In this document: positions 12,190 through 39,910 of the stretch, one piece after another
Numbering within the stretch: the first letter of the stretch is position 1
Layout: each line of letters starts with the position of its first letter
Source: Bacteroidota bacterium
GTDB lineage: Bacteria > Bacteroidota > Ignavibacteria > UBA10030 > UBA8401
DNA: 64,000 bases
Reading direction: 5' to 3'
NCBI GenBank assembly: GCA_021796275.1
Contig: JAJYOI010000001.1
Location: 6,803-70,802 of the forward strand
Translations under genes and position numbers: made by a program
The notes under the pieces: generated by a model
What the model saw: only the letters and a program-made list of their open reading frames with translations
Told to the model about the DNA's origin: nothing
Databases searched by the model: none

Positions 12190-12203
12190 TCTGCACTCCG
12201 AAA

Positions 12204-13184
12204 TCAGTTAAAAACATAGCCTAATGAAAGAGAACTAATACCGCCAACATTCCCCACCATCGCCTGGTATGAAAATGAATAGTCAATCGTAACATTTCCG
12301 ATGACAATGCCAAAACCGGCGTCGTACTCGCCTTGCGAATTTGCCGCAGTTAATCTGCCGCCGCCCGCGCGCACCAAAAATGCGGCAGCCGAGCCGAGCA
12401 CGGTCGTTTTCAAACCGATAAATTCCGCACCGCCGCCGACACGAATATCTTTTCCCTTCACAGTAATGCCCGCAGTAGCTGAATAGTCATACACGCGGGA
12501 AATATAGGAAGCTCCCGCACTCAACTCCGCGGGAAGTTTTGCATCGCTTGATCCGTTTGAGGCGACAGATGGTTGTGTGAAATTCAAGACCGACGCACCA
12601 ATTTGAATGTCGTTGCCTTTGAAAATATCTTTGAACGAATAAATTGCGCCGACATCGAAAGAAAATCCGAGATATGAAAGCGCATCCTCTGGAACCGCAT
12701 TTTCGCCTTGCGGCGCAAGTGCGCTCCACCGAAGCATTTTCACGCTGCCGCCAACGGACAATTGACCGTCGAACATTTGACGCGCAAAGGTACCGACAGC
12801 CATATTTTCCGACCAGCCTGCGGGAGCAAACTGAGTCACGCCGATTCCTATAACGCCAAGATCACTCACAGGATAATCGCCGGCAAACGAAAAGAAATTC
12901 AGGTTGGCATCGGCGATATTCGGATACAGATTTGTATATGAGGTGAAGAGCTTCAGCGAGCGGCCGAAGCCTATACCGGCAGGATTATAAAAAATAAGTG
13001 AGGGATCATCAGAGAGTGAAACAGCGGCACGCCCAAGCGAAGTGATCTTTGCACTGTATCCCTTATCAACAAATGCTTGTGCGTATGCAGTGTCCCGCTC
13101 TGATATGATCAACAATGAGAAAGAAAGAAAAATCTTCAGTAGCAAAGTTCTCACATGTATGCTTTCGTTAGTAAGCAACAACAA
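12204..13184 (-). CDS. FadL-superfamily outer-membrane beta-barrel. It is probably the PorP/SprF-family T9SS partner of the adjacent type-B CTD cargo.
   Basis: About 300 aa with a signal peptide. N-terminal hatch motif GRAAVSLSDDPSLIFYNPAGIGF (the G.A...DD....NPAG motif shared by FadL, PorV and PorP/SprF). Gly/Ala-rich amphipathic strands. It overlaps the 3' end of the upstream cargo gene by 17 nt. Confidence 0.5.
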   Translation of the reverse strand: MLLLTNESIHVRTLLLKIFLSFSLLIISERDTAYAQAFVDKGYSAKITSLGRAAVSLSDDPSLIFYNPAGIGFGRSLKLFTSYTNLYPNIADANLNFFSFAGDYPVSDLGVIGIGVTQFAPAGWSENMAVGTFARQMFDGQLSVGGSVKMLRWSALAPQGENAVPEDALSYLGFSFDVGAIYSFKDIFKGNDIQIGASVLNFTQPSVASNGSSDAKLPAELSAGASYISRVYDYSATAGITVKGKDIRVGGGAEFIGLKTTVLGSAAAFLVRAGGGRLTAANSQGEYDAGFGIVIGNVTIDYSFSYQAMVGNVGGISSLSLGYVFN

Positions 13185-14919
13185 CTGTTTTCGTTACAAA
13201 TTCTCCCCCGTTATCAACATTTACGGCGAGCTGAATAATATACACGCCCGGCAAAACCAGCTTGCCATTATCATTCCTCCCATCCCATAAAAATCCTTTT
13301 CCTCCGCTTCGTGGATCGCCAAAATATGGATTTGCTGCCGACGGCATCGAAACAACCGTTCTGATTTTTTTGCCGGTTAAATCGTAAATGGAAATTGACA
13401 ACGTTTTAGGCGTTTCAACATTAGCCACAGAAAAATCAATAATCGTGGCATCATTTTTTCCATCACCATTAGGAGTGAACGGATTAGGATCTATTTGAAC
13501 ATCAACCAGAACATTTTCAGGCACTCCGTTTGTCGTTACCGACCAACCATCGCCGGTTGCGGTTCGATGAGGATCGACAAACTGAGGGTTCCATGAAGCA
13601 TTTTTGCTGACGATCTCAGCGGGAAAATCGGCGCCTTCAATTAGTTTTGTAGTGAATGTAATATCGATTGTCGAAGATGTAACTATTGTCTGCGGGAACC
13701 CAATTGTCATTTGGTCGGGAGCGGGGAGAAAAGTATAAGAGATTGGAACTCCATCAGAAGAAACGGAACGAACCACTGCCGGACCCGGACTTCTAATTTT
13801 TACTGTATCCAGTCCAAGTGAGCTATGCGAAAAGTACGCCGCAATAGAATATTTCAACGTCACTGGGCTTAGCACGGGAACATCGGACGGAGTAATAAAC
13901 GCAACAGTCGAATCCGCAATCAGATTTTTTTGATAGACAAACTTTACGCCTTTCACTTTCGGCGTACCTAAATCTGACGTGAAAAGATGAAGGCGGTATT
14001 GAAAATTTCTCCTCGGCTCTTTGACATCAAGGAGCGTTCCTTTTTCGGCTTCTTCAGCCGAAAAGAATTCGACCGGCGTTGACCAGGCAGACCAAGTTGT
14101 GTCAGCAGCCGGTGTGTTCCCGGTGCGCATCTCAATTGAAACCGATGTTGCATTATCAAAATCAGCGTCAACATAAACCTGCCCGAAATTCACTGCTGCA
14201 CCAAGCGAGGTATCAATCGCAGAAGTGTACGTTCCCTCCGAAACATATCCTTCCCCGAAAATCCTGATTTCGGAAATAACGGTATAATCCGTGAGAGTCT
14301 GTTTATCCAAGACAAAAACAAGGTAACGCGCAATGACGGGCTGTGAAAGATAGGCAGTATGAATAGAATCCTGGTTATCGAGTTCCTGATAAATTTTTGT
14401 AAGACTATTAGAATCCACCCCGGCATAATAAGAAAATGCGAGCGGGCGTTGTTTCTTTGACGAACCGAACCCGCCCAAATCTGCCACCTGAATTCGATTA
14501 ATACGGCGAATCGCCTGCAAGTCAATTGTAATGAAAGAACCAACATTGCCCGGCGGCAGCGATACGATGGAAAAAAGATTGTTGTCACGCAATTTGTTCG
14601 CATTCATTTTCGCTGTGTCGGGAACCGTCGTGTTGGGAATTGGACCATTAGTTTGCGGAATAGGGCCGATATAGGTTATCGAGAAGCGGGCATCGAGCGC
14701 CAGGTTTTTTGTGTCGCCGCTTGCGAGAACAATGGCATGCGGCACCGCACCCAAGTCAACATCCGCAGTTTGCTGTATATCCCGCTTGGTAGAGTCTGAA
14801 AAATCCGTTATCGAATAAACGAGAGAATCAGAGGAACTTGTAACTTCGGGTAACTGCGAGTATAAACTTAGAGGAAAAATAACCGAGGTGACAAAGAAGA
14901 GATAAAATATTTTTCTCAT
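13168..14919 (-). CDS. Secreted adhesin-like protein with a type-B T9SS C-terminal domain (gliding-motility-associated / SprB-type CTD)
   Basis: The C-terminus VQIDPNPFTPNGDGKNDATIIDF...YDLTGKKIRTV...FLWDGRNDNGKLVLPGVYIIQL carries the NPFTPNGDGKND signature. The signal peptide MRKIFYLFFVTSVIFPLSLYSQ starts at ATG 14919. The ORF-track start at 14994 is likely too long. Confidence 0.7.
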   Translation of the reverse strand: MRKIFYLFFVTSVIFPLSLYSQLPEVTSSSDSLVYSITDFSDSTKRDIQQTADVDLGAVPHAIVLASGDTKNLALDARFSITYIGPIPQTNGPIPNTTVPDTAKMNANKLRDNNLFSIVSLPPGNVGSFITIDLQAIRRINRIQVADLGGFGSSKKQRPLAFSYYAGVDSNSLTKIYQELDNQDSIHTAYLSQPVIARYLVFVLDKQTLTDYTVISEIRIFGEGYVSEGTYTSAIDTSLGAAVNFGQVYVDADFDNATSVSIEMRTGNTPAADTTWSAWSTPVEFFSAEEAEKGTLLDVKEPRRNFQYRLHLFTSDLGTPKVKGVKFVYQKNLIADSTVAFITPSDVPVLSPVTLKYSIAAYFSHSSLGLDTVKIRSPGPAVVRSVSSDGVPISYTFLPAPDQMTIGFPQTIVTSSTIDITFTTKLIEGADFPAEIVSKNASWNPQFVDPHRTATGDGWSVTTNGVPENVLVDVQIDPNPFTPNGDGKNDATIIDFSVANVETPKTLSISIYDLTGKKIRTVVSMPSAANPYFGDPRSGGKGFLWDGRNDNGKLVLPGVYIIQLAVNVDNGGEFVTKTVVVAY

Positions 14920-15012: not shown

Positions 15013-15612
15013 CTAATTCCTATACAACCGATGTTCCATGATATACTCTTCCACAGAAGTAGGAACGAGATAACGAATTGATCGGTGCGCTTTCACTGAG
15101 GCGCGAATTTCCGATGACGATATTTCAATATCTGGAACATCAACAAAAATTGCAGACGAAGAAAATGGAAGCTGCTGCTGATTGTGTTGATATGAAGCGC
15201 GATTCATAACAATAAGCTTTGCCTGTTCTACAATTCGTTCTGGAAATTTCCATGTCCGAAATTCAATGAAGTTATCCATCCCGATCAAAAAAAATAATAA
15301 GTCGTTCGTGTGCTCGGCGCGAAGCGCTTCGACAGTTTCAAAAGTGTAAGATGTCCCTTTCCGCTTCAGTTCAATATCGGAAACTGTGAAATGGGAATTA
15401 TCCTTAATTGCAAGTCTAACCATTTCCAACCGCGCTCGTGCATCTTTTTCTTCCCCCGCTTGTTTATGTGGTGAAATGAAAGATGGAATAAAAATAATTT
15501 TGTCCAAGCCGGCCCTTTCGCGAACATGCTCAGCAACAATCAAATGGCCGTAATGCGGCGGATTGAATGTTCCGCCAAAAATTCCAATGTTCATTTTTTT
15601 CTTATCGTTCAT
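15013..15612 (-). CDS. nadD: Nicotinate-nucleotide adenylyltransferase
   Basis: IGIFGGTFNPPHYGHL (H/TxGH) motif, typical NadD length, SxxxxR-like C-terminal region. Confidence 0.9.
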   Translation of the reverse strand: MNDKKKMNIGIFGGTFNPPHYGHLIVAEHVRERAGLDKIIFIPSFISPHKQAGEEKDARARLEMVRLAIKDNSHFTVSDIELKRKGTSYTFETVEALRAEHTNDLLFFLIGMDNFIEFRTWKFPERIVEQAKLIVMNRASYQHNQQQLPFSSSAIFVDVPDIEISSSEIRASVKAHRSIRYLVPTSVEEYIMEHRLYRN

Positions 15613-16717
15613 TTTTTCCCATCACTTTTTCATAAATTTCCATTGTCTTTTGCGCAGTCGTTCGCCACGAAAAAAGCCGGGAACGCTCTCTCCCTTTCTC
15701 AATCATGTTTTTCCTTAAATCTGGTTCTCGCAATAAACAAACGATCGCATCTGCAAATTCATCAACATTCCCCGACTCGCAAATCATCGCCGCATTCCCT
15801 ACGACTTCCGGCAATGATGCAGCCTTCGAAATAACAACCGGAATTCCGCATGCCATCGCTTCCAACGCGGGCAAACCAAATCCTTCATATAGCGACGGAA
15901 GCACAAGCATCTCTGCCGCGTTGTATGCAAGCATAACGTCATCATCAGCAAGCCGGCCGAGAGTTTTTATTCTTCCCGAAATTTCAGAGACACCGGTGTT
16001 CAGCCAATCCACACCTTCATGATTCAATGTTCCACCTACAATTACAAGGTCAATATCGGGAAAAATGCGAAGGGCTTTTTTGAATGCATCAAGCAATACT
16101 TCCAGCCCTTTGTGAGGTTTGGTGTTGCCGACAAAAAGAACGTACGGCCGTTCAAGTTGAAACCTCGATCTAAAATCCTCAGCTTCAGAAGAAGTATGTT
16201 TTTGACGAAATCGCTCCGACACACCGAGATGAATTGGTACAATCTTTTCTTCCCGCACCCGGAATGAGCGGAGAATATCGTGCTTTGTAAACTCGGAATC
16301 TGTTATGATATATTGAGCATCACGGACTGCGTGAAGAATCATTCCGTAAGAATACGCCCGCTGAAAGGAAGAAAATAATTCCGGAAATCGTAAATGAATA
16401 AGATCGTGGATTGTTACCACCGCTCTCTCCTTCAATCCAAAGGGAAGCGTATAATGCGGCGCATGGAAAACCGAGACATCATTTACTGCAGCCCTTCTGC
16501 CGAATAGAAAAATCTCGCTCACTGAATACTTGCCATATCGTACAACAGATGTTGTCCATCCGTCAGGAATAGAAAGTTTTTCTTCATCCTCCGGCGAGAC
16601 AAAAAGAAGAAACTCGTGCCCGGATTGAATCAAAGGCAATTCTTCAACAAGATGTCTGATATACGTCCCAATCCCGAAGTCATAATATTTTCTTGCGTCA
16701 ATTGCGATACGGCTCAT
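15602..16717 (-). CDS. Glycosyltransferase family 4 (GT-B fold)
   Basis: EX7E-type motif region [18 protein letters not shown]. Start at Met [10 protein letters not shown] (ATG 16717). Overlaps nadD by 11 nt. Confidence 0.8.
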
Positions 16718-16721
16718 AGTA

Positions 16722-17546
16722 TTATCCGTGTGACTTGAACAACGAAGCAAGGATTACTGCCGACGTTTTTTTACCGCTTGCAGTTAGAAACCGAACGGCA
16801 AATTTCAAGAAAAGATAAATACGTAAAAAGATTCGCTGCGGTATTGATCGGAATTTATCGTAAAACCGAAGCTGGCTTTTCCGATATTCTGTCTGGATTT
16901 TCGCATTTGACACATCGTAGCTTTTTCCGCCCAAATGTATAAGGCTGAGTTCTTGAAAATACTTAATTGAAAAGCCATTGCGCAACACGCGAAAGCATAA
17001 ATCAATATCCTCAAAATACATGAAATACTTTTCATCGAACCCGCCGGCTTGCTCAAATACTGACCGGCGCACCATCATCGCGGCTCCAGTTACCCATTCA
17101 ATATTTCCGGATACTACCACTTCACGTTTTGTTTTCCACTCATTCAAAAGTGACGGGAATTTTCCGTACGAAATTTGGAACGAACCATCTTCATTGCTCA
17201 GCGAGGGTGCGGCAATGCCGTTCGTTTCATTTTGTTTCATGAATACAGCAAGCGGCGTAATAATGTCCGAAGTAAAAAGCGTGTCGTTATTAACAAAGAA
17301 AAGAAAATCACCGCACGCTTTCATCACACCAAAATTGTTCGCACTGCTGAAACCTTGATTTTGTTCCAGCAGAAATACTTGATGCTCGGGAAAATCCTTT
17401 TTAAGCCGATGCCCGCTTCCGTCTGCTGAGTTATTATCAACAATAATAACTTCATAATCCAAGGAAGGCGCAAACTGTTTCAGAGATAAAAGACACTGCT
17501 CAGTATAAATGCCGCCGTTATAATTTACAATGATAACGGAAACCAT
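16722..17546 (-). CDS. Glycosyltransferase family 2
   Basis: N-terminal VSVIIVNYNGG...DNNSADGS (DxD-type GT-A signature). Confidence 0.8.
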   Translation of the reverse strand: MVSVIIVNYNGGIYTEQCLLSLKQFAPSLDYEVIIVDNNSADGSGHRLKKDFPEHQVFLLEQNQGFSSANNFGVMKACGDFLFFVNNDTLFTSDIITPLAVFMKQNETNGIAAPSLSNEDGSFQISYGKFPSLLNEWKTKREVVVSGNIEWVTGAAMMVRRSVFEQAGGFDEKYFMYFEDIDLCFRVLRNGFSIKYFQELSLIHLGGKSYDVSNAKIQTEYRKSQLRFYDKFRSIPQRIFLRIYLFLKFAVRFLTASGKKTSAVILASLFKSHG

Positions 17547-17549
17547 GTT

Positions 17550-18581
17550 TTAATCGGTCATGAATTCTATTGTTCGAATATTCACGATTCTGAAATACCA
17601 AAGCGCAATTTTGTTGATGAGTGTTCCGAATATTGATTCGCCGTTCGTTATTTTGCTTGTCATTCGTCGGATGATTTCTTCTTCTGAAACTTTCTTCAAC
17701 ACTGCAAGTTCGCCTCGCTTTTTCCGAATCAATCCGATATGAGACAGGAGCCACCAATACGCCCGGACTATTCCGACGATGGAATATTTCGTCGGAAGCA
17801 AACCGGCGGCACTTTTAGCAAGCGCGTTTAACACGAATAAAGGCAAAAGCTTTACTAATGTTTTCGGAGAGAAAAAAAGAAAAGTATTCAACAAACGATT
17901 ACGCTCTTGATAGAACGTCTTCACAGAAGATTTTTGATTCCTTGCCGTACCGGAGCCGCGATGGTACACAACTGAATCGTTCACATGAATTACATGGTAA
18001 CCGGCAAATCGGGCTTTCAAACTTAAATACACATCTTCACCGTAGGTAAAATACTCAACGTCGAAAGGAATTCCAAAAATGTTCTTCTTGTAAATAAGCG
18101 ACGCTCCGCCTGCAAAAAAAATATCTTCCCGCTTTTTGAAGACACGCATAATGTTATGCCCGAGAAAATTAACCGAACCGTTCATCTCGTAGTATTTTTG
18201 CGGAATACCCTCAGTCAAAATGAGTGATGATGCTGCGGCAACATCAGCCGGAGAAACAGCGCTCACCAGATTAGAAAGCCAGTCTTTTTCTGCTCGTGTG
18301 TCGTTATTTAAAAGAACAATGAGAGTGCCATGCGAAGCTTGAACACCAAGGTTATTCCCTCCGGCAAAACCAGAATTGGTTTGAGAACGGACAATCTTTA
18401 CCTGCGGAAAGTGTTCCCGAACAAATTCCACGCTGTCATCTGATGAAGCATTGTCAACAAGAATAACTTCAAATTGAGTGTACGCTTGTCGAAACACCGA
18501 ACTCAAACACACATCCAAGAAGCGTTTGCCGTTAAAATTGACAATGATAATTGAAACAACCGGTTGTTGAGTCTCGCTCAT
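17550..18581 (-). CDS. Glycosyltransferase family 2
   Basis: VSIIIVNFNGKRFL...VDNASSDDS. Confidence 0.8.
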   Translation of the reverse strand: MSETQQPVVSIIIVNFNGKRFLDVCLSSVFRQAYTQFEVILVDNASSDDSVEFVREHFPQVKIVRSQTNSGFAGGNNLGVQASHGTLIVLLNNDTRAEKDWLSNLVSAVSPADVAAASSLILTEGIPQKYYEMNGSVNFLGHNIMRVFKKREDIFFAGGASLIYKKNIFGIPFDVEYFTYGEDVYLSLKARFAGYHVIHVNDSVVYHRGSGTARNQKSSVKTFYQERNRLLNTFLFFSPKTLVKLLPLFVLNALAKSAAGLLPTKYSIVGIVRAYWWLLSHIGLIRKKRGELAVLKKVSEEEIIRRMTSKITNGESIFGTLINKIALWYFRIVNIRTIEFMTD

Positions 18582-18584
18582 CAG

Positions 18585-19523
18585 TCAGAATTTGAAAAGT
18601 GAATTCACATACCGCAGAGAGACGTTCCGCCGCGATTGGATGTCTTTCCGCTTTGCCAAGAGAACCGGAAAAAATTTGATAACCTCGACAGCTGCCTGAA
18701 GCTGTTCCTTGATAAATCCTTGTTGAAGAATCTTCATCGCATTATAAATTCTGCTCAGAATAATTAACGCAGCACGCAATAAAAAAATCTGCCACGGAAC
18801 ATTTTTGAGCAGGTAAAAGAAAGGATTTCGCGCATGAAGTTTTGCCGCAAGGCTCGTAATCTGTAATTTTGTCCCACCGCGTTTGTGATAGCATACGGCA
18901 TGTGGAGTATAGAGACACTTATAGCCCAGAAGCTGGGAACGAAAATCATGATCAATATCTTCACCCCAGGCAAAAAAAGATTCATCGAATAAGCCGACTT
19001 CATCAAACATCTTTCTGCGATAAAGCGCAGCGCCTGCGCATGCACCGAAAACATAATGGAAAGAATCGAACGAACCGTTATCCAGTTGTTTTTCACCACG
19101 CGAACGACCGTTCCCGGCACAACTCAACTCATCACCGGCGGCATCAATAATATTGCGATGATAAAAGTTCATCATCTTACAAGCAACAGAGCCGATTTCA
19201 TCATGTTGGCGAATTGCTTCAATCATTTTTTCCAGCCAATCGCCCGTTAATTCAATATCGTTATTCAATAGCGCAATATAGTCATTGCGTGTCGCAGTGA
19301 TTCCCGCGTTCACCGCACACGCAAATCCTTTATTCTCACTGAACTGAATCCACCGTACTTGAGGAAAATTTTCCGCTACATACGAAACTGAACTGTCGCT
19401 CGATCCATTATCAACAACGATAACTTCGAAATCGGAATACGTCTGCTTGAAAATCGAATTCAAACAGAGCGGCAAATGCTCCATGCCGTTATAATTCGGA
19501 ATGACAATGCTAACGGCCGGCAT
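18585..19523 (-). CDS. Glycosyltransferase family 2
   Basis: VSIVIPNYNGMEHL...VDNGSSDSS. Confidence 0.8.
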   Translation of the reverse strand: MPAVSIVIPNYNGMEHLPLCLNSIFKQTYSDFEVIVVDNGSSDSSVSYVAENFPQVRWIQFSENKGFACAVNAGITATRNDYIALLNNDIELTGDWLEKMIEAIRQHDEIGSVACKMMNFYHRNIIDAAGDELSCAGNGRSRGEKQLDNGSFDSFHYVFGACAGAALYRRKMFDEVGLFDESFFAWGEDIDHDFRSQLLGYKCLYTPHAVCYHKRGGTKLQITSLAAKLHARNPFFYLLKNVPWQIFLLRAALIILSRIYNAMKILQQGFIKEQLQAAVEVIKFFPVLLAKRKDIQSRRNVSLRYVNSLFKF

Positions 19524-20493
19524 GGAGAGGAACTCCTCGGTGACGAACGAACATCGTGTAAAACGATTTCAAAAAAAGTTTATGCTTTCTTTTGCTATAC
19601 GCAGCCGATTCGAAGGCATTATTGCCAGCAACGGTAATGCTGCGGATGAGATAGATAATGCCGGAGTTACAAACAAGAACGAGTTCGACAAAAAATGCGG
19701 AAAGTTTCGATCTGTTTTTTTTGAAAAACAAAATCAAACTGAGGGTAAATCGTTCAAACACCCATTCATTGTTCTTTGATACAAAGCTCCTTCCGCCAAC
19801 GTGAGTGAGCGCTGCTTTCCGATACAGAACAAGCTTCCACCCTGCTCTTCTCATCCGTAAAGACCAATCCACGTCTTCAAAAAATAATTTGTATTCTTCA
19901 TCCATCAATCCAACAGCAACAATCACGCTGCGCCGAACGAGAATACATGCGCCGGGAATTTGCTCTACCTCAGAATATTCTTCATCCTGAAGCGGCGCTT
20001 CCAGGAATCGCTCAACAAGCCATTGTATTTTTCTGCTCCACGGCTCGAAAAAGGTATGGAAAAATATAACTTGAAAAAGAGTGGGGATTTTTCTCACATA
20101 ACCTTTTTGAAAAACACCGTCTGCATTCATCAACATCGGCATAAGAGCGCCGGCATCAGCGTGTGATTCAAAAAAAGAAATAAGCTTTTCAATCGCTTCC
20201 GGCTGAAGCACAATGTCTGGATTAAGAATCAAAATATATTTACCTTGCGACCTGCGTATTCCTTCATTGACACCCCATGCAAAACCGTTGTTGACAGTGC
20301 TCGCCACTAACGAAACTTCTGCGTAATTAGTTTTCACTGTATCGCAACTCCCATCGCTTGATGCGTTGTCAACGACGATCACTTCTTTTGAAAACGCGGA
20401 AAGGCACCGGACGATAGAATCCAAACACGAAAGGAGATATTCCTTTGTATTCCAATTCACAATGATAATAGAAAGATCGGGTAGCATGTTCAT
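19510..20493 (-). CDS. Glycosyltransferase family 2
   Basis: LSIIIVNWNTKEYL...VDNASSDGS. Start taken at Met MNMLPDL (ATG 20493), downstream of the flippase gene's stop. Confidence 0.75.
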   Translation of the reverse strand: MNMLPDLSIIIVNWNTKEYLLSCLDSIVRCLSAFSKEVIVVDNASSDGSCDTVKTNYAEVSLVASTVNNGFAWGVNEGIRRSQGKYILILNPDIVLQPEAIEKLISFFESHADAGALMPMLMNADGVFQKGYVRKIPTLFQVIFFHTFFEPWSRKIQWLVERFLEAPLQDEEYSEVEQIPGACILVRRSVIVAVGLMDEEYKLFFEDVDWSLRMRRAGWKLVLYRKAALTHVGGRSFVSKNNEWVFERFTLSLILFFKKNRSKLSAFFVELVLVCNSGIIYLIRSITVAGNNAFESAAYSKRKHKLFLKSFYTMFVRHRGVPLHAGR

Positions 20494-20503
20494 AATGTGC
20501 CAT

Positions 20504-22048
20504 TCAGCGTTCGAAAGATGCTGCAACCTTACGAACGATACGACGGACAATACCAATGTCGTATTCATCGAAAACTTTGAACAGCAACAGTGTTGCAACA
20601 ACAATTCCAAGATACAGCATTACGGCTAATAATAAACTGACAATTGTTCCTTCCCGAGAAAATGACATCGGATATATTGCATGAATGACAACTTGAGCGA
20701 TCAACGCAGCCCCAATACAAATTGACATTGGCTTGATGAAGATGCGGGCAATCAGCAGTGAAGAAATGCCCATGGTTCGGTGAAACGCGACAATGAAATA
20801 AAAAGCCCCAATAATAAGTGAAAGCGATGTCCCTAATGCGATGCCAACGGGACCAAATAGAAATGCACCGAGCAACGTAATGCAAATATTTATGACTGCT
20901 ACCAAAAGCCCGTAATTTCTGTCCAATTCTGTTTTACCTAACCCTGCAGTCATCGAACTAGCAACACCTGTGACAATATTAAAGAAATAGCCAATCGCAA
21001 GAAGCCGTACAAAAGCGACTGATGTTTCAAACCCCGCGCCGACCCAGGCATAAATAATATCGGAAACAAAAACAGTAACAAAGCAGAAAAAAAAGCTTGC
21101 GACTATTACAATATATTTCGTTCCGCGTTTATACAATGCCGTTAATTGTTCGCGATCATCTTTTGCATTGATTTCAGCAATCGCCGGAATGAGCGCCGTG
21201 AGGATCATAAATGAAAATGAACGCGCAGCACTTGTCAACCGCACGCTTAAATCATAATACGTTGAAACGAACGCGCCAAAAAAACGAAGGCTGAAAATCC
21301 GATCCGTCTGGAAAAGAATAATTTGCCCCATTCGACTTACCTGCAGATTGAACCCGTAATGCAAGAACTGTTTTACTTTTGTGAAAGCAAAATAGCGCGG
21401 GCGAAGCTTTAATGACGGAACAAGTCGGAATGCAATGACACTTAGACACATGGCATTGACTGCCGCAACAATCAGATTGTTCACAACCAAACCGCGCACG
21501 CCATAACCGGAACGAAGAACAAAAATTGTTCCGGCGATAGTAAGTGTTTGTGTAACAAAAGAAACATATAAATTGACTTCCATTCTTTGAATGCCGTTGA
21601 TGATTGACGTTACCGGAGACGCAATTCCCGACAGAACAAAAATACACACTGCAACTTTTAACACAAACTCTGCATCGCCAAGAATTGCCTGAGGCACTCC
21701 GGCAAGAGAGAGCAGAACGCCGCCAAGAGAAAGTGCTAAACCAATAATTACGATCCCGATGGCTGCATAGACGATCACTCCCGTGTTGACAACTTCGAGA
21801 AGGTCATCCATCATGCCTTTTGTGTAATATTCACTGATATATTTTACGAAGGCAGTGCCTGTTCCCATGTCCAATAAGCCGATGTAGGCAGTCAATGCGC
21901 CGATAATTGCCCACACCCCGCCATACATTTGTTCGCCGAGTGAATGGACAATAAACGGGACAAGAAAAAAGTTGGAGACAAAAATGAAAAAAAAATTGAT
22001 CGAATTGGTGATGGTGTTGCGGATTATTTTACGCGGCGTTTCATTCAT
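20504..22048 (-). CDS. Wzx-like polysaccharide flippase (MOP/MATE superfamily polysaccharide biosynthesis protein)
   Basis: About 12-14 predicted TM helices across 514 aa. It sits inside the GT cluster. N-terminus IRNTITNSINFFFIFVSNFFLVPFIV. Confidence 0.7.
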   Translation of the reverse strand: MNETPRKIIRNTITNSINFFFIFVSNFFLVPFIVHSLGEQMYGGVWAIIGALTAYIGLLDMGTGTAFVKYISEYYTKGMMDDLLEVVNTGVIVYAAIGIVIIGLALSLGGVLLSLAGVPQAILGDAEFVLKVAVCIFVLSGIASPVTSIINGIQRMEVNLYVSFVTQTLTIAGTIFVLRSGYGVRGLVVNNLIVAAVNAMCLSVIAFRLVPSLKLRPRYFAFTKVKQFLHYGFNLQVSRMGQIILFQTDRIFSLRFFGAFVSTYYDLSVRLTSAARSFSFMILTALIPAIAEINAKDDREQLTALYKRGTKYIVIVASFFFCFVTVFVSDIIYAWVGAGFETSVAFVRLLAIGYFFNIVTGVASSMTAGLGKTELDRNYGLLVAVINICITLLGAFLFGPVGIALGTSLSLIIGAFYFIVAFHRTMGISSLLIARIFIKPMSICIGAALIAQVVIHAIYPMSFSREGTIVSLLLAVMLYLGIVVATLLLFKVFDEYDIGIVRRIVRKVAASFER

Positions 22049-22057
22049 GTAAACAGT

Positions 22058-22945
22058 TCACCTTAGCTGAGAATGAAGCAACGACAATTCGGCTTTTGTG
22101 TCATGATGAAAAGAAAAAAGCTTCAGTGCAATAGGGCTTTTGGTCACTGCCATTAAACGGAACAAAAGAATCGGCAAAAGAAAATATTCTGCTTTTCTGC
22201 CAAAATGCATGCGGTAGTATAATAATATATTGCAGTACATTTCCAACCGTAGCTTCGGATTCGCCTGCTTCGTGCTGCGGCTGCCATGATGCATAACAAC
22301 CGCCAGCGGCGTAAAATATATTTCCCATCCACTGTGTTTTATCCGCCGACATAATTCCACATCGTTATAGAGAATTGTTAATCGTTCATCGAAGAGTCCG
22401 AAAGAATCCACGATCGCTTTGCGAACAATTAAGCACGTTGCATCAGGCTGATCTACAGAGCGCACGACGTCATGTTTGAACTTTTTCATCAGATAACCGG
22501 AGTTCAACCAATTGAGCGAACAATATAAAGCCGCTGCGTTCAGCGGAGTCGGAAAGCGTTTGCACGAAGGTTGAAGCTTCCCGTCCGGTGTAACAAGCTT
22601 GCAGCCTACGGCACCGGCATTGTGGTATTCATTCATAAATTGTATCATCTTTTCCAACGCGTTTCCACGAACTTCGGTATCGCTGCCTAAAAGTAAAATA
22701 TATTTCCCTTTTGCAATTTCCGCTCCCTGATTATTTGCCCGCGCATAACCAAAATTTTTTGCATTACAAATCAGGACCACATCAGGAAATTCACTTTCGA
22801 TCATATTTGCTGAGCCATCAACCGATGCGTTATCAACAACTATGATTTCATACGTTCCCTTTGGAGGTTGCACATAAATTGAACGCACACATTCCCTCAA
22901 CAAATCTCGGGTATTCCACGATGCGATGATGATCGATAATTCCAC
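22058..22945 (-). CDS. Glycosyltransferase family 2
   Basis: LSIIIASWNTRDLL...VDNASVDGS. The GTG start lies immediately after the trpB TAG stop. Confidence 0.75.
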   Translation of the reverse strand: MELSIIIASWNTRDLLRECVRSIYVQPPKGTYEIIVVDNASVDGSANMIESEFPDVVLICNAKNFGYARANNQGAEIAKGKYILLLGSDTEVRGNALEKMIQFMNEYHNAGAVGCKLVTPDGKLQPSCKRFPTPLNAAALYCSLNWLNSGYLMKKFKHDVVRSVDQPDATCLIVRKAIVDSFGLFDERLTILYNDVELCRRIKHSGWEIYFTPLAVVMHHGSRSTKQANPKLRLEMYCNILLYYRMHFGRKAEYFLLPILLFRLMAVTKSPIALKLFSFHHDTKAELSLLHSQLR

Positions 22946-34826: not shown

Positions 34827-34869
34827 TTTTTTGAAAGTGAGGCAACTTGTTTAATTCAGAAGCTGTCCA

Positions 34870-34898
34870 TTGCATTGCTTCCGCCTTTTATTTAATTT
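34870..34898 (+). promoter_or_regulatory. Candidate sigma-70 promoter TTGCAT-N17-TAATTT in the divergent cmk / GT2 intergenic region
   Basis: Hexamers and the 17-nt spacer are read from the sequence. It would give a very short leader for the GT2 gene at 34908. Confidence 0.3.
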
Positions 34899-34907
34899 GA
34901 TTCAGCT

Positions 34908-36032
34908 ATGAAATACGAACTTGCTGTTATCATCATTAACGCAATCCTTTTTTTTTGCTACCTCGCCATTCATAGCCTTGTCATACGAGGTATGGCAAAG
35001 CTTCGCAAGGGAAACAATACAGAAATGCGCCGGTTTTCAATCATCGTTGCGGCACGAAATGAGGAAAAGTGCATCGGAAGCTGCCTCGAATTTTTGGCGA
35101 AACTCGAATATCCAAAGAAGCTGTACGAAATCATCGTCGTGAACGACCGCTCCACTGACGCGACCGAAAAAATCGTTCAGGAATACCAAAGAAAATATCC
35201 AATCATTCGCTTGATCTCACTCGACAACATCACGTCCGATCTGCCGGGAAAAAAAAATGCGCTGAACGAAGCGATCAAGGCAAGCACGAATGAGATACTC
35301 GCTTTCACAGACGCAGATTCCATTGTACCGCCGCAATGGCTTACGATACTTTCAGAATATTTTGAGCCAACTGTCGGAGCTGTTGCGGGTTACTCGCCTT
35401 TTGAAGAACATTCTATCGAAACACTTTCTGCCAAAATCGGAGACGGCTTCCTTCGCTATGAAGAAATGAAGAACTCATCAGCTACAGCTGCTGGTATTGG
35501 ATTGAAAAATGCTTACATGTGCACCGGAAGAAATTTTGCTTACCGCAAAAAAGTTTTCGAACAGGTTGGCGGATTTCAAAAAATCAAGCACTCGATCAGC
35601 GGCGATGACGATCTGCTCATCCAGCTTATGCAAAAAGAAACGACATGGGAAATCCGTTATATGTCCGAACCGGAAAGTTTTGTTAAAACTCAACCACCGT
35701 TGACATTCAAGGAGTTTATCAATCAGCGGAAGCGGCATTTTTCTGCCGCACAATTTTATCCGGCAAAGATGAAAATCATCTTCGCGTTGATTCACTCATT
35801 TAACGCCGTATTGATGATTTCGTTTTTTTTCGCCCCGGCTACAGCAGGAATATTTGCGATCGGGAAATTTATCATTGACGGCATTCTTATCCGTAAAGCA
35901 ATACAAACATTCGGGAATCGGAATCTGTTTAAATGGTTTGTTCCATTGGAAATTTGTTTTATCTTCTACAACCTGTTGATAGGCCCGCTCGGCCTTGTTG
36001 GAAAATTTAATTGGAAAAGTTCTCTCGAATGA
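34908..36032 (+). CDS. Membrane-bound glycosyltransferase family 2 (N-terminal TM, GT-A domain, C-terminal TM helices)
   Basis: RFSIIVAARNEEKCIGSCLEFL...VVNDRSTDATEKIV and a DxD region. Several C-terminal TM helices. It is a paralog of 36988-38151. Confidence 0.75.
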   Translation: MKYELAVIIINAILFFCYLAIHSLVIRGMAKLRKGNNTEMRRFSIIVAARNEEKCIGSCLEFLAKLEYPKKLYEIIVVNDRSTDATEKIVQEYQRKYPIIRLISLDNITSDLPGKKNALNEAIKASTNEILAFTDADSIVPPQWLTILSEYFEPTVGAVAGYSPFEEHSIETLSAKIGDGFLRYEEMKNSSATAAGIGLKNAYMCTGRNFAYRKKVFEQVGGFQKIKHSISGDDDLLIQLMQKETTWEIRYMSEPESFVKTQPPLTFKEFINQRKRHFSAAQFYPAKMKIIFALIHSFNAVLMISFFFAPATAGIFAIGKFIIDGILIRKAIQTFGNRNLFKWFVPLEICFIFYNLLIGPLGLVGKFNWKSSLE

Positions 36033-36991
36033 AATTCTTGTCCGATCATCCGCTTCTTACCTTCACCGCGAAAATTGCCATTGGCATTGGACTCATCATT
36101 GCGCTCGTCTCATATATTAACTTCCAGAACTTGCTTGATTCGCTTGTCCATGCAAAAATCATTTATCTAATCGTCGGTGGAGCACTCATGATCGCAAACC
36201 TCACAGTGCAGTTTTATCGCTGGAGATTTCTTTTGCGATTAATTGATGAATCCGTTTCAAACGATGCAATTTTTTCTTCCCTGTTCATAGGGTTTGCTGC
36301 CGGTTTTTTTACACCGGGGCAAATCGGTGAATACGGCGGCAGGGTTGCTGCGTTGCGCTCTTTACGGGGATCAAAAGTACTTGCCTCAAGTTTAATCGAC
36401 AAACTGTACTTATTGGCTGTCACCATCACCGGCGGAATCATCGCGTTGATGTTGTTTGCCAGCTTTTTCTTACCGCGCTATTGGAGCGTTTCGTACATCG
36501 CTATCGGCTTGGCAATCGTGATTATTATGAGCATCGTGATACTGTACCCTCAACGTGTAAAACTCGTCCTGACTTTGCTGCCGAAAAAAATTCTGGAAAA
36601 TCGAGCCGTTGCCGCTTTCCTTTCAATCAATGAATTTTTTCGACGGAAACAGGCGCGCGCATTTCTCCTTTTGACGATCGTGCTGTATTCAATTATACTC
36701 TCTCAATACGTGCTCATTGCAAACTCATTCGAGAGCGTTCCATTTTATTCGGGCGTGATGTGTGCGGCATCCATCCTTATTGTCAAGTCGGCATTTCTTC
36801 CAATTTCTATCGGCGATCTTGGAATCCGCGAAGGAACGGCAATTTTCTTTTTCAGCCGCGCAGGTTTTTTACCGGCAACAGCATTTAACACTTCGATGTT
36901 CTTATTTTTTTTCAACATCTTCATCCCAAGTTTGGTTGGCGCTTTTTATATCATCCGATCAAAAGGGCAACAATCGAAATTTATTCCATGA
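36011..36991 (+). CDS. UPF0104 flippase-like integral membrane protein (lysylphosphatidylglycerol-synthase TM-region-like)
   Basis: 326 aa with about 8 TM helices. The conserved RW/R motif after TM2 (QFYRWRFLLR) is typical of PF03706-like proteins. It overlaps both flanking GT2 genes. Confidence 0.55.
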   Translation: MEKFSRMKFLSDHPLLTFTAKIAIGIGLIIALVSYINFQNLLDSLVHAKIIYLIVGGALMIANLTVQFYRWRFLLRLIDESVSNDAIFSSLFIGFAAGFFTPGQIGEYGGRVAALRSLRGSKVLASSLIDKLYLLAVTITGGIIALMLFASFFLPRYWSVSYIAIGLAIVIIMSIVILYPQRVKLVLTLLPKKILENRAVAAFLSINEFFRRKQARAFLLLTIVLYSIILSQYVLIANSFESVPFYSGVMCAASILIVKSAFLPISIGDLGIREGTAIFFFSRAGFLPATAFNTSMFLFFFNIFIPSLVGAFYIIRSKGQQSKFIP

Positions 36992-38151
36992 ATCTCTTCC
37001 CCGATATACTTTCGATTATTCTTTCCCTTCTTGGAATTATCTACGTACGGCAAATTTTTTTGTTCACCAGCGGCTTAAAGAAGCTACGAGAAGGAATTAT
37101 CGAACAACATCCCTCCATTGCTGTTGTCGTCCCAGCAAGAAATGAAGAAGCACACATCGGCGATTGTCTCTCGTCGCTTTTAAATCAAGACTATCCGAAA
37201 GATAAAATCACCATTGTTGTAGTTGACGATCAATCAACCGACAATACTTCGACAATTGTACAAAATTATGCTTCCAACTCGTCCAGAATAAAATTGCTGG
37301 GCGTTCAAAATCCCTCCAAGCATATTTCTCCAAAAATCAATGCACTGACGCTTGGCATTGCCCAGAGCAAAAGCGATATAATTTTTACAACCGACGCCGA
37401 TTGTATCGCAGGATCAAAATGGATTTCATCCATTATCAAACATTTTGCTCCTGAAGTCGGCATTGTCACGGGAACCACGGTTTTTGACAACAAACAAAAT
37501 GTTTCGCCTCTATTATTCGGTGTTCAATTCCTCGATTTTCTTTCTCACACGGCGTGTGCGGCAGGTGCCATCGGCAATGGAAATGTGAACAACTGCAATG
37601 GAAGTAATATGGCATTCCGGCGCTCAGCCTACGAAGCTGCTGGCGGATATTCTTCACTCGCACATCTCAATTCCGGAGATGATTCGCTTCTTGCCCAACA
37701 AATCGTCTCCAACACGAAATGGAAAATACGTTTTGCAAGTGAGCCTGAATCGCAGATGACAACTTTTCCTGTCGAACACTGGACAGATTTCCTTCAACAG
37801 CGCATGCGGTGGGCAGCACAAACCGCACATTACCGGCCGGCAATGCTTGTGTTTCTCGCAACTTCATTTCTCTTATACGCGCTTCTTTTTGTTTTGACGC
37901 CATTCTCGATTGCATTTTTCACCGAATTTCCGTCTCCGGTTATTGTGCTCTGTGGAAAATTTACGATCGATTATTTAATTCTCAAAAGATTCACAACGCT
38001 GACAAAGACTTCATCTGTGATGAAATTCTTTTTGCCTGCGGAAATTATCCACGTCCCTGCAATTCTCATAGCGGTGCTCGGGGGGTACTTTGGGCACTTC
38101 AAGTGGAAGGGACGAACTCTTCTGCGAACAATGGAAAAAGCGAGCGCGTAG
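36988..38151 (+). CDS. Membrane-bound glycosyltransferase family 2 (paralog of 34908-36032)
   Basis: SIAVVVPARNEEAHIGDCLSSLLNQDYPKDKITIVVVDDQSTDNTSTIV is clearly homologous to the upstream GT2 and has the same TM/GT-A/TM architecture. Confidence 0.75.
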   Translation: MNLFPDILSIILSLLGIIYVRQIFLFTSGLKKLREGIIEQHPSIAVVVPARNEEAHIGDCLSSLLNQDYPKDKITIVVVDDQSTDNTSTIVQNYASNSSRIKLLGVQNPSKHISPKINALTLGIAQSKSDIIFTTDADCIAGSKWISSIIKHFAPEVGIVTGTTVFDNKQNVSPLLFGVQFLDFLSHTACAAGAIGNGNVNNCNGSNMAFRRSAYEAAGGYSSLAHLNSGDDSLLAQQIVSNTKWKIRFASEPESQMTTFPVEHWTDFLQQRMRWAAQTAHYRPAMLVFLATSFLLYALLFVLTPFSIAFFTEFPSPVIVLCGKFTIDYLILKRFTTLTKTSSVMKFFLPAEIIHVPAILIAVLGGYFGHFKWKGRTLLRTMEKASA

Positions 38152-38248
38152 CTGCGGCGTAAAACTTTTCCATTGCACTTGGAAACTTGCTTTCCATTGA
38201 GTAAATTTATGTGCCCTTTAACGACCCACATTTCCTAAAGGAGCTGGC

Positions 38249-38896
38249 ATGAAACTCGACCGGTTTATCAAAGTCCTGCTTCCGCACGACGAAACATTTT
38301 TTTCCCTTTTTGAAGAATCAGCACAAAATCTTGTCACGGCAGCTGCCATAATGAAAAAGCTTGCTGCCGCAAAGACAAAAACAGAACAAGAAAAATTCGT
38401 TCAAGAAATTCGTGGCTGTGAACATGCGGGTGATTCAATTACACACAAGATTTTTTCCGAACTAAACGGAACATTTGTAACACCCTTTGACCGTGAGGAT
38501 ATTCACCTTCTCGCTTATTCACTCGACGAAATTATGGACCAAATTGACGGCTCGGCCCGGCGGTTCTATTTATATAAATTAAAAAAATGGCCTAAAAATT
38601 CGGTTCAGCTCATCAAGATCATTGAAAAATCTGTTTCAGAACTTCGAAGTGGCGTAACTCTTTTACGGAATCTTCAACAAATTGACGAGCTGCAAAAAGT
38701 TTTTACAACTGTCAACGAATATGAAAACGAAGCGGACACTGTCTTTGAGGAGGCAATGGTAGGACTTTTTGGAAAAGAAAGAGATCCTTTCCAGCTTATC
38801 AAACTGAAAGAAGTTTACGTCGGACTGGAAACGGCAACTGACAGTTGTGAAGATGTTGCTAACGTTCTCGAATCAATTGTCATCAAACACGCCTAA
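38249..38896 (+). CDS. DUF47-family (PhoU-like) phosphate-transport regulator
   Basis: 215-aa helical protein immediately upstream of the PiT transporter, which is the canonical DUF47-PiT pair. Confidence 0.7.
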   Translation: MKLDRFIKVLLPHDETFFSLFEESAQNLVTAAAIMKKLAAAKTKTEQEKFVQEIRGCEHAGDSITHKIFSELNGTFVTPFDREDIHLLAYSLDEIMDQIDGSARRFYLYKLKKWPKNSVQLIKIIEKSVSELRSGVTLLRNLQQIDELQKVFTTVNEYENEADTVFEEAMVGLFGKERDPFQLIKLKEVYVGLETATDSCEDVANVLESIVIKHA

Positions 38897-38914
38897 TTAT
38901 TTTTCGAACTCTTT

Positions 38915-39910
38915 ATGTTGACGCCGTTCGTCCTTCTCATCATTCTTATTGCGCTTGTATTCGATTTTCTCAATGGGTTCCACGATGCCGCAAACTCAAT
39001 AGCAACGATCGTTTCGACACGCGTTTTGACTCCACGCAAAGCAGTGGTGTGGGCGGCATTCTTTAATTTTGCCGCAGCATTTTTGTTCGGAGAGAGCGTT
39101 GCTGCAACTGTTGGCAAAGGATTGGTCAAGCTGGAATTGATTAATGAGTATGTCATTCTTTGCGGTTTATTAGGCGCAATTTTTTGGGACATCATCACGT
39201 GGTATTTCGGACTTCCGACAAGCTCTTCACATGCTTTAATGGGCGGTTACGCAGGCGCCGCAATCGCAAAAGCAGGCTTCGGCTCAATTTTGTACGGAGG
39301 ATGGACAAATACGCTTATCTTTATGGTGGTCGCGCCTATTATGGGAATGGTGATTGGATTCACAATCAAGGTAACATTAATGTGGATGTTTCATCACCGG
39401 CCTTCGTCAAAAATCAATCATGCGTTTCGCAGGCTTCAGCTTCTTTCAGCCGCGGCTTTGAGTTTAGGCCACGGCGCAAATGATTCACAGAAAACTATGG
39501 GCGTTATTACCGGATTGCTTGTAACAGCGGGAGTGCTGAAAACATTTGTCGTCCCTTTTGAAGTGCTCATTTTATGTTACGTTTCCATTGCACTCGGAAC
39601 ATTATTCGGCGGCTGGAGAATAGTTAAAACGATGGGGCAAAAGGTAACCAAACTGAAAACGTCCGACGGATTTGCAGCAGAAGGTGCCGGCGCCGTTACG
39701 CTCCTCATGACCGCGATAAGCGGTATTGCTGTCAGCACAACACACACAATCACTGGAGCAATTATGGGCGTTGGTGCAACAAAAAGACTTTCCGCTGTTC
39801 GATGGGGTATAGCGGGAAGGATAGTGATGGCATGGATTCTTACTATTCCCCTTTCCGCAATTGTTTCTGCGTTACTATACTGGCTGCTCTCCCCATTCTT
39901 TTCTCACTGA
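38915..39910 (+). CDS. Inorganic phosphate transporter, PiT family
   Basis: GFHDAANSIAT and GANDSQKTMG signature motifs. 331 aa with multiple TM helices. Confidence 0.9.
   Translation: MLTPFVLLIILIALVFDFLNGFHDAANSIATIVSTRVLTPRKAVVWAAFFNFAAAFLFGESVAATVGKGLVKLELINEYVILCGLLGAIFWDIITWYFGLPTSSSHALMGGYAGAAIAKAGFGSILYGGWTNTLIFMVVAPIMGMVIGFTIKVTLMWMFHHRPSSKINHAFRRLQLLSAAALSLGHGANDSQKTMGVITGLLVTAGVLKTFVVPFEVLILCYVSIALGTLFGGWRIVKTMGQKVTKLKTSDGFAAEGAGAVTLLMTAISGIAVSTTHTITGAIMGVGATKRLSAVRWGIAGRIVMAWILTIPLSAIVSALLYWLLSPFFSH

Follow-up and report, generated by a model that had tools for sequence, protein, structure and literature searches.

What would a bacterium make with two membrane-embedded glycosyltransferases whose genes bracket, and overlap with, the gene for a putative lipid flippase? 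The question is raised by a locus in a 64,000-nucleotide stretch of DNA from an Ignavibacteria-type Bacteroidota genome (assembly GCA_021796275.1, contig JAJYOI010000001.1, positions 6,803 to 70,802; hereafter the window). Three co-directional open reading frames (ORFs) lie there on the + strand: GT2A (34908-36032), which encodes a membrane-embedded family-2 glycosyltransferase (GT2) of 374 amino acids; a middle gene (36029-36991) for a 320-amino-acid polytopic membrane protein of the PF03706 family, also called the UPF0104, PplT or MprF flippase-domain family; and GT2B (36988-38151), which encodes a 387-amino-acid paralog of GT2A with the same architecture. A preliminary description had located these ORFs and read them as a self-contained module for glycolipid synthesis and translocation. 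We give an even chance to the proposal that the triad makes and flips a glycolipid, that is, that a membrane lipid is glycosylated stepwise on the cytoplasmic face and then flipped. The module did not prove self-contained, because the same gene order heads a longer conserved cluster in relatives.

Two membrane-embedded glycosyltransferases around an MprF-type protein

The mechanical ORF of the middle gene begins at a TTG (36011), whereas the true start is the ATG at 36029, which is backed by the gene calls of two public assemblies and by 41 homologs that share an MK..HP N-terminus (consensus MKxxxxHP). This start explains why the 326-amino-acid version that begins at the TTG has no exact match on record. 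With the ATG at 36029, the junctions between GT2A and the middle gene and between the middle gene and GT2B are each a 4-bp ATGA overlap, in agreement with the overlaps described earlier. ATGA overlaps are the usual signature of translational coupling, and we predict that the three genes are coupled in translation as one unit. Contigs of the metagenome-assembled genome (MAG) GCA_027371395.1 and of one ENA metagenome assembly contain the identical locus.

GT2A and GT2B are homologous, as had been proposed: they align end to end with 34% identity (E 7e-58), and the motifs first singled out in them (RFSIIVAARNEE..VVNDRSTD and SIAVVVPARNEE..VVDDQSTD) are both found in the window ORFs. Both proteins match PF00535 (GT2A 9e-28, 97.7 bits; GT2B 9e-24, 84.7 bits; cut-off 23.3) and PF13641 (96.2 and 82.2 bits; cut-off 27). 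The GT21 model PF13506 also exceeds its cut-off in both, reaching 7e-22 in GT2B, the more GT21-like (ceramide-glucosyltransferase-like) member of the pair. GT2B carries the canonical D, DxD, (E/D)D, Q(Q/R)xRW set in the strings DDQSTD, TDADC, SGDDS and QQRMRW. The corresponding strings of GT2A are NDRSTD, TDADS, SGDDD and QRKRH (D80, D135-x-D137, SGD-D234-D and Q273-x-x-R276-H277), which depart from the canonical set at the tryptophan, with QxxRH in place of QxxRW. In 120 GT2A orthologs, no change is seen at Q273, R276 or H277, nor at D80, D135, D137, D233-235, K115 or K116.

The AlphaFold (AF2) model of GT2A is predicted with high confidence scores (predicted local distance difference test, pLDDT, 93.2; predicted template-modeling score, pTM, 0.91) and consists of an N-terminal transmembrane (TM) helix (residues 2-30), a GT-A domain (43-260), an interface helix (267-283) and three C-terminal TM helices (286-364). 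Hydropathy gives the same topology of one N-terminal and three C-terminal TM helices in GT2A and picks up 1 + 2 TM segments in GT2B; together with the Pfam matches, these results confirm the TM/GT-A/multi-TM architecture attributed to both enzymes. The GT2A model aligns nearly end to end with the membrane-integrated GT2s hyaluronan synthase (HAS), PcManGT and BcsA. With its TM-flanked GT-A domain, its interface helix and a superposition that extends beyond the GT-A core, GT2A shows the membrane-integrated, 'cellulose-synthase-like' GT2 fold. Its similarity to GtrB, ArnC and DPMS does not span the whole protein including the C-terminal TM hairpin and the juxtamembrane helices. By sequence search of the Protein Data Bank (PDB), PcManGT is the best solved relative of both GT2s (7e-13 for GT2B); GT2B further matches ceramide glucosyltransferase over residues 15-302 (E 4.6e-10), and GT2A has no match to that enzyme at E <= 0.01. 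A basic stretch, RGMAKLRKG, trails the N-terminal TM helix of GT2A. Because of these basic residues and the fold match to HAS, BcsA and PcManGT, we place the GT-A domains in the cytoplasm, and any membrane-bound product would therefore be made on the inner leaflet.

Models of named glycosyltransferases gave no assignment for either GT2. The scores of GT2A and GT2B were 74.4 and 96.9 bits for the PgaC/IcaA synthase of poly-N-acetylglucosamine (PNAG; TIGR03937, cut-off 422.3), 39.8 and 81.2 bits for HpnI (TIGR03472, cut-off 310), 49.1 and 94.0 bits for HpnB (TIGR03469, cut-off 379), 33.8 and 63.3 bits for NodC (TIGR04242, cut-off 550), and 50.0 and 55.8 bits for CruG (NF045692, cut-off 600); MftF likewise scored many-fold under its equivalog cut-off. 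An analogy to hopanoid loci, which combine GT2s, a UPF0104-like membrane protein, a deacetylase and radical S-adenosylmethionine (SAM) enzymes, had been prompted by radical-SAM genes in relatives and was also set aside: the radical-SAM genes of the relatives match neither HpnH nor HpnJ, and there are no shc, hpn or other hopanoid genes, and no sphingolipid genes, among the neighbours.

The middle protein matches PF03706 along nearly the entire profile (residues 20-310 on profile positions 3-302 of 302; 8e-19, 68.6 bits, cut-off 33.4) and scores 34.6 bits, under the cut-off of 43.2, for the narrower NCBIfam model TIGR00374. Its AF2 model (pLDDT 84) and its hydropathy both display about eight long helices, much as the preliminary description had it. 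Sequence searches of the PDB, by phmmer and with a 42-sequence profile in HMMER, found nothing. By Foldseek, the only significant PDB matches of the model are five MprF structures (9j8s, 7duw, 9goe, 9j8q and 7f47; TM-scores by query length 0.59-0.62, probability 1.00), and all other matches have TM-scores < 0.25. Since the fold match is to MprF only, the middle protein is a stand-alone MprF-flippase-domain (UPF0104/PplT) protein, a homolog of that domain in MprF, in keeping with the flippase family to which it had been assigned. Lipid flipping would then be its activity.

Gene order and orthology among relatives

Scanning one genome per species, we found at least 524 species genomes with relatives of the query, possibly including GT2 paralogs; the analysed loci comprise 80 of these plus six places reached by exact protein match (L001-L004, L085 and L086), and all homologous loci come from uncultured MAGs. 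When the GT2 ORFs of the analysed loci (n=163) were clustered, they formed orthogroups that are specific to position. The GT2A orthogroup (24 loci) always lies directly 5' of the PF03706 gene and has SGDDD and an invariant QxxRH; the GT2B orthogroup (25 loci) lies directly 3' of that gene and has QRxRW; a third group, GT2C (23 loci), lies farther downstream and has xED and QKxRW. The position-specific orthogroups place the duplication that gave GT2A and GT2B before the divergence of these lineages. The two are an ancient, functionally differentiated pair and no recent tandem copy. The paralogy first described stands, and the separate orthogroups and the different acceptor-site motifs show that the duplication is not recent.

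Counted over loci with enough sequence downstream of the GT2A ortholog, the PF03706 gene directly follows GT2A in 21/21, GT2B comes next in 19/20, a carbohydrate esterase family 4 (CE4) deacetylase follows GT2B in 15/19, and a PHP-domain hydrolase is found farther downstream in 13/16. The GT2A-flippase-GT2B order spans MAGs labelled Bacteroidota and Ignavibacteriales at 36-55% identity, and related clusters occur in KSB1, Zhuqueibacterota and others. The CE4 protein of the relatives (PF01522) is NodB-like, with a weak match to the ArnD model (5.5e-05). Among 26 orthologs inspected, those with unambiguous N-termini have no signal peptide, and the deacetylase therefore most likely acts before flipping; deacetylation ahead of flipping is one option proposed for HexD of Clostridioides difficile and for GpgD of Pseudomonas aeruginosa (PMC10128005, PMC11898633, PMC12713373). 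Past the CE4 gene there is usually GT2C and/or a GT-B enzyme (Glyco_tran_28_C / MJ1255 family), together with a 536-amino-acid PHP-domain (CehA/McbA-type) hydrolase, a DUF1207-like protein and, often, an M50 peptidase.

The window lineage displays a shorter version. Both the window and a 75%-identical relative (L085) contain GT2A, the flippase gene and GT2B only, followed by PhoU_div and PHO4, and tblastn (E <= 1e-5, >= 50% query coverage) detected no homologs of the CE4, GT-B, PHP, DUF1207-like or M50 proteins in the 64-kb window. In a 70%-identical relative (L086, 7525-9700), only GT2A and the PF03706 gene are present: GT2B is cleanly absent, and 90 bp lead to PhoU_div. From the content of L086, the minimal conserved unit is GT2A plus the flippase. 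The genes that were retained are maintained: relative to L085, nonsynonymous over synonymous differences per site (pN/pS) are 0.141/0.625 for GT2A, 0.151/0.668 for the flippase gene and 0.129/0.691 for GT2B, and all three are under purifying selection. As judged from gene content, the window triad appears to be a reduced version, the 5' core, of a larger envelope cluster.

Two further arrangements were seen. In L064 (1759-16744), and also in L059, L047, L036 and L034 (KSB1, Zhuqueibacterota and similar MAGs), a super-cluster of 12-15 kb holds five to six membrane GT2 paralogs, a PF03706 gene, a SAM methyltransferase, two to three radical-SAM/SPASM proteins, and Wzi-like and DUF3108 proteins. 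A CE4 deacetylase is present in L034 and L036 and a PHP hydrolase in some loci (L064), and the radical-SAM proteins match no named family above cut-off. In L057, L065, L076, L077 and L078 (~10000-13400; MAGs labelled Bacteroidota, Ignavibacteriota and Chlorobiaceae), only a GT2C-type gene remains. This lone gene is flanked in most by a uridine-kinase-like gene and by a sigma-54 activator with a 379-amino-acid unknown protein; L077 and L078 are without one or other of these flanking genes. The lone-GT2C loci represent a different pattern of cluster erosion.

What the triad may make

Families, folds, ancient paralogy, gene order and purifying selection are established; in the path proposed here, we infer which kind of molecule accepts the sugars, which sugars are added, in what order the enzymes act and that flipping takes place. 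With nucleotide-sugars as donors, GT2A and GT2B would glycosylate a lipid acceptor of the inner leaflet one sugar at a time. GT2A most likely would prime the lipid, because the acceptor-stacking tryptophan of QxxRW is replaced in it by an invariant histidine and because it is the GT2 that is never lost. GT2B, with its canonical QxxRW, would extend the sugar head group, and the PF03706 protein would carry the glycosylated lipid to the outer leaflet. In the full clusters of relatives, cytoplasmic deacetylation by CE4 would yield an amino sugar, and the later genes would elaborate and probably export the product. The window lineage appears to have kept the core alone, and we therefore expect a simpler product from it, a mono- or di-glycosyl lipid without deacetylation.

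A lipid acceptor has precedent among GT21-type enzymes, which include ceramide glucosyltransferase, HpnI of hopanoid clusters and the processive diacylglycerol (DAG) glycosyltransferases of Agrobacterium and Mesorhizobium; they use the same D/DxD/D/QxxRW set, and their acceptors are neutral membrane lipids. The alignments of GT2B to the HpnI and HpnB models span the full length, although the scores (81 and 94 bits) lie far below the cut-offs (310 and 379).

Several points weigh against the glycolipid proposal. Every named glycosyltransferase family scores far under its equivalog cut-off, the best structural matches of GT2A, HAS and BcsA, are processive polymer synthases, and the top NCBIfam match of GT2B, albeit sub-threshold, is PgaC/IcaA. 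The Wzi-like and DUF1207-like outer-membrane proteins of the extended clusters would also fit polysaccharide export. The order GT2A-then-GT2B has two supports only, the motif difference and the loss of GT2B in one relative. The loci all come from uncultured MAGs, hence no chemistry can be linked to them, and the literature on the lipid chemistry of Ignavibacteria-type isolates offered no link to this cluster. Finally, direct flippase activity of stand-alone PF03706 proteins has not been demonstrated, even for HexF or GpgF (PMC10128005, PMC12713373).

A broader version of the proposal, which we advance more tentatively, is that the triad represents, in its smallest natural version, an envelope system of the Fibrobacteres-Chlorobi-Bacteroidetes (FCB) group that has yet to be described and that makes a lipo-oligosaccharide or amino-glycolipid. 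Such a system would extend over Bacteroidota-affiliated MAGs, Ignavibacteria, KSB1, Zhuqueibacterota, Calditrichota, Cloacimonadota, Latescibacterota, Fibrobacterota and Marinimicrobia. Each of the two to six GT2 paralogs with the HAS fold would add one sugar onto a lipid anchor, with the QxxRH enzyme GT2A as a new lipid-priming subclass, and the PF03706 flippase would take the product across the inner membrane. In the full versions, the cytoplasmic CE4, radical-SAM/SPASM enzymes, methyltransferase, PHP hydrolase and Wzi- or DUF1207-type barrels would yield a modified lipo-oligosaccharide that reaches the outer membrane. If true, such surface glycolipids would constitute a class not known before, assembled by a route of their own.

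A somewhat more doubtful but still serious alternative is that the GT2s are processive or short-processive (NodC-like) synthases of an oligo- or polysaccharide, a GlcNAc-type or mixed glycan that is extruded through the membrane, with the PF03706 protein as a subunit that is accessory or serves translocation; the CE4 and outer-membrane proteins of relatives would then round off a secretion system of the PNAG/chitosan-like kind. The HAS/BcsA fold suits such an enzyme, yet each GT2 has four TM helices like the minimal PcManGT, versus the six to eight of the channel-forming HAS and BcsA. The D, DxD, (E/D)D and QxxRW motifs are all present in GT2B and GT2C, whereas the tryptophan of the last is missing from all 120 GT2A orthologs; moreover, two to six paralogous GT2s in series suggest one addition each. 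PgaC/IcaA is the top NCBIfam match for both GT2B and GT2C, and NodC is matched as well, but the PgaC and NodC scores fall 4- to 16-fold under the cut-offs. The extended clusters do supply a NodB-like CE4 plus Wzi-like, DUF1207-like and DUF3108 proteins. This deacetylase, however, differs from PgaB and IcaB in having no signal peptide, and we saw neither PilZ nor a PgaA/BcsC-type porin nor a PgaD/IcaD-like partner; moreover, all roles so far known for PF03706 involve lipids or sugars linked to lipids (PMC5898192, PMC12713373).

It is unlikely that the GT2s instead charge undecaprenyl phosphate in the manner of GtrB, ArnC and DPMS, with the PF03706 protein flipping a polyprenyl-phosphate sugar and a GT-C enzyme encoded elsewhere decorating lipopolysaccharide, glycan or protein in the periplasm. 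The fold comparison with GtrB, ArnC and DPMS disfavours this arrangement, and the QxxR(W/H) interface helix and N-terminal TM helix typify the synthase class, even though a GT2 with a flippase (and a PF01522 deformylase/deacetylase) parallels ArnC, ArnD and ArnE/F, and the deacetylase of the relatives weakly matches the ArnD model. Archaeal AglD, a GT2-UPF0104 fusion, does act on dolichol phosphate (PMC5898192); two adjacent paralogous charging enzymes would nevertheless be unusual, and GT-C genes are absent from the triad, from the 17 kb of annotated sequence that surrounds it and from the relatives' conserved clusters. Least probable is that the triad is a decaying remnant of a larger cluster, or is phase-variable through slippage in GT2A. 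The lineage does seem to have lost the CE4, GT2C, GT-B, PHP and DUF1207 genes, and a sister lineage GT2B too, but the three ORFs are intact, all catalytic and invariant residues are kept, and a pN/pS of ~0.2 against the 75%-identical relative indicates purifying selection. As for slippage, the window has only three homopolymers of >= 9 nt, and two of them lie within the first 350 nt of GT2A: a T9 tract (34948-34956, + strand; codons L-F-F of the N-terminal TM helix) and the A9 tract (35249-35257, + strand) that had been pointed out in the preliminary description; the third is an A9 at 21987-21995. The A9 tract of GT2A reads GGA AAA AAA AAT and encodes G-K-K-N (K115, K116). Its length variation, suggested as a check, was found among relatives, which carry A8, A6-G-A2 or AAGAAAAA at this site, yet the Lys-Lys pair is invariant in the 120 orthologs, and phase variation at A9 is thus unsupported. 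The GT2A protein is identical in two independent assemblies, which agree on the tract length, and nine bases are at the low end for slippage switches. The tract is best seen as a by-product of the conserved Lys-Lys codons.

Flanking DNA and known systems

Upstream of GT2A lie divergent genes on the - strand (cmk, ispH, rpsA and a MiaB-like gene). After 97 bp past GT2B, the + strand continues with PhoU_div and with a gene for a PHO4/Pit phosphate transporter (38152-39910 region), and a DUF3098 gene and a large amylase-like gene on the - strand lie beyond them. None of these neighbours is an obvious lipid or glycan gene. The divergent intergenic region between cmk and GT2A (34827-34907) contains, on the + strand just 5' of the GT2A ATG, a conserved AATTGCnTTGCT ... 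GTTTTnTTTAnTTTG that is kept in the window, L085 and L086, despite a different upstream gene in L086. It is probably a promoter of the Bacteroidota type with a very short leader; a sigma-70 scan of the + strand of this upstream region gave nothing convincing. In the 97-bp spacer between GT2B and PhoU_div, no terminator is predicted, and we noticed a direct repeat, TTTCCATTG x2, and a conserved GTAAATTTATGTGCCCTT element. The conserved TAAATTTA-like element between GT2B and PhoU_div/PHO4 may serve as a second promoter. The PhoU_div/PHO4 adjacency is kept in L085 and in L086, there directly past the flippase gene, and may point to phosphate-linked regulation of a phosphorus-free lipid.

Elsewhere in the window (15602-22945, - strand) lies a Wzx-type polysaccharide cluster (O-antigen- or exopolysaccharide-like) with one GT4 gene, five soluble GT2 genes and a Polysacc_synt/MatE flippase gene (20504-22048), followed by trpB- and trpF-like genes. 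A link to the triad was rejected: the cluster forms a locus of its own on the other strand, and trp and housekeeping genes lie between it and the triad.

The pairing of a stand-alone MprF-type flippase with a glycosyltransferase is an emerging general route to remodel membrane charge and surface chemistry, and its two best parallels here, HexSDF and GpgSDF, were characterised as recently as 2023-2025. The locus extends this logic to membrane-embedded, HAS-fold GT2s and to largely uncultured FCB hosts. It also provides a natural series, from GT2A plus flippase (two genes) through the triad to clusters of 8-15 genes, and a comparison along this series could allow each step to be assigned. Should the product be a lipid, the invariant QxxRH would mark how this fold switches from a sugar to a lipid acceptor; should it be a polymer, glycan export would be an unexpected task for a protein of the flippase family. 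The significance is moderate for now, as the parts belong to known families. That UPF0104 proteins associate with glycosyltransferases is an already recognised theme: Makarova et al. predicted them to be flippases and noted glycosyltransferase and deacetylase neighbours in archaea (PMC5898192), and a survey of PplT described frequent fusions with GT-A and GT-B domains (bioRxiv 10.1101/2022.03.11.483950). New are the placement of an ancient GT2A/GT2B pair on both sides of the flippase, a subclass with invariant QxxRH, the wide occurrence of the cluster among FCB phyla and the gradation from reduced to expanded versions.

Among solved enzymes, the window GT2s resemble PcManGT (PDB 6YV7), class I HAS and BcsA in their N-terminal TM helix, GT-A domain, QxxRW-type interface helix and C-terminal TM helices, and they share the minimal 4-TM layout with PcManGT. 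They differ from all three in sequence (12-21% identity), in the QxxRH of GT2A and in their partner, as none of the three is paired with a PF03706 protein; HAS and BcsA, in addition, have more TM helices and form a glycan channel. The resemblance to GT21-type enzymes lies in the PF13506 matches of both GT2s. MprF and archaeal AglD share the flippase-domain family with the middle protein and, like it, couple that domain physically or genetically to a cargo-making enzyme (PMC5898192; bioRxiv 10.1101/2022.03.11.483950). By contrast, the window protein stands alone between two GT2 genes, without an aminoacyl-phosphatidylglycerol synthase domain, and its sequence similarity to MprF chains is undetectable by HMMER.

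The closest characterised parallels carry both genetic and lipidomic evidence (PMC10128005, PMC11898633, PMC12713373), and the reading of the triad as a glycolipid synthesis and translocation unit fits them. In C. difficile, UgtA makes monohexosyl-diradylglycerol, HexS adds N-acetylhexosamine, the CE4 enzyme HexD deacetylates it, and HexF is an MprF-like flippase; the product of HexSDF with UgtA is aminohexosyl-hexosyl-diradylglycerol (PMC10128005, PMC11898633). Like the triad with its putative lipid glycosyltransferases, the operon joins such an enzyme to a stand-alone MprF-flippase-domain protein, the CE4 (PF01522) is shared with the window's relatives, and the two sequential glycosyltransferases, UgtA and then HexS, parallel the two GT2s. 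HexS is, however, a GT-B enzyme like MGDG synthase and MurG, whereas the window enzymes are membrane-embedded GT-A proteins (GT2/GT21-like) with the HAS/PcManGT fold; the window also has no deacetylase, its host is a Gram-negative of the FCB group, and its relatives add PHP and outer-membrane-type proteins. In P. aeruginosa, GpgS, GpgD and GpgF make glucosaminyl-phosphatidylglycerol (PMC12713373). This is likewise a Gram-negative three-gene unit of synthase, deacetylase and UPF0104/COG0392 flippase, for which cytoplasmic synthesis followed by flipping has been proposed, but its synthase GpgS is a GT4 enzyme and soluble, its deacetylase GpgD belongs to COG3233, and there is a single glycosyltransferase in place of a paralog pair; the deacetylase again lacks a counterpart in the window. 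With glycosyltransferases and a flippase in the window, and no deacetylase found by tblastn in its 64 kb, the triad would, by analogy, work like a truncated form of HexSDF and GpgSDF, and it is not a full member of their type.

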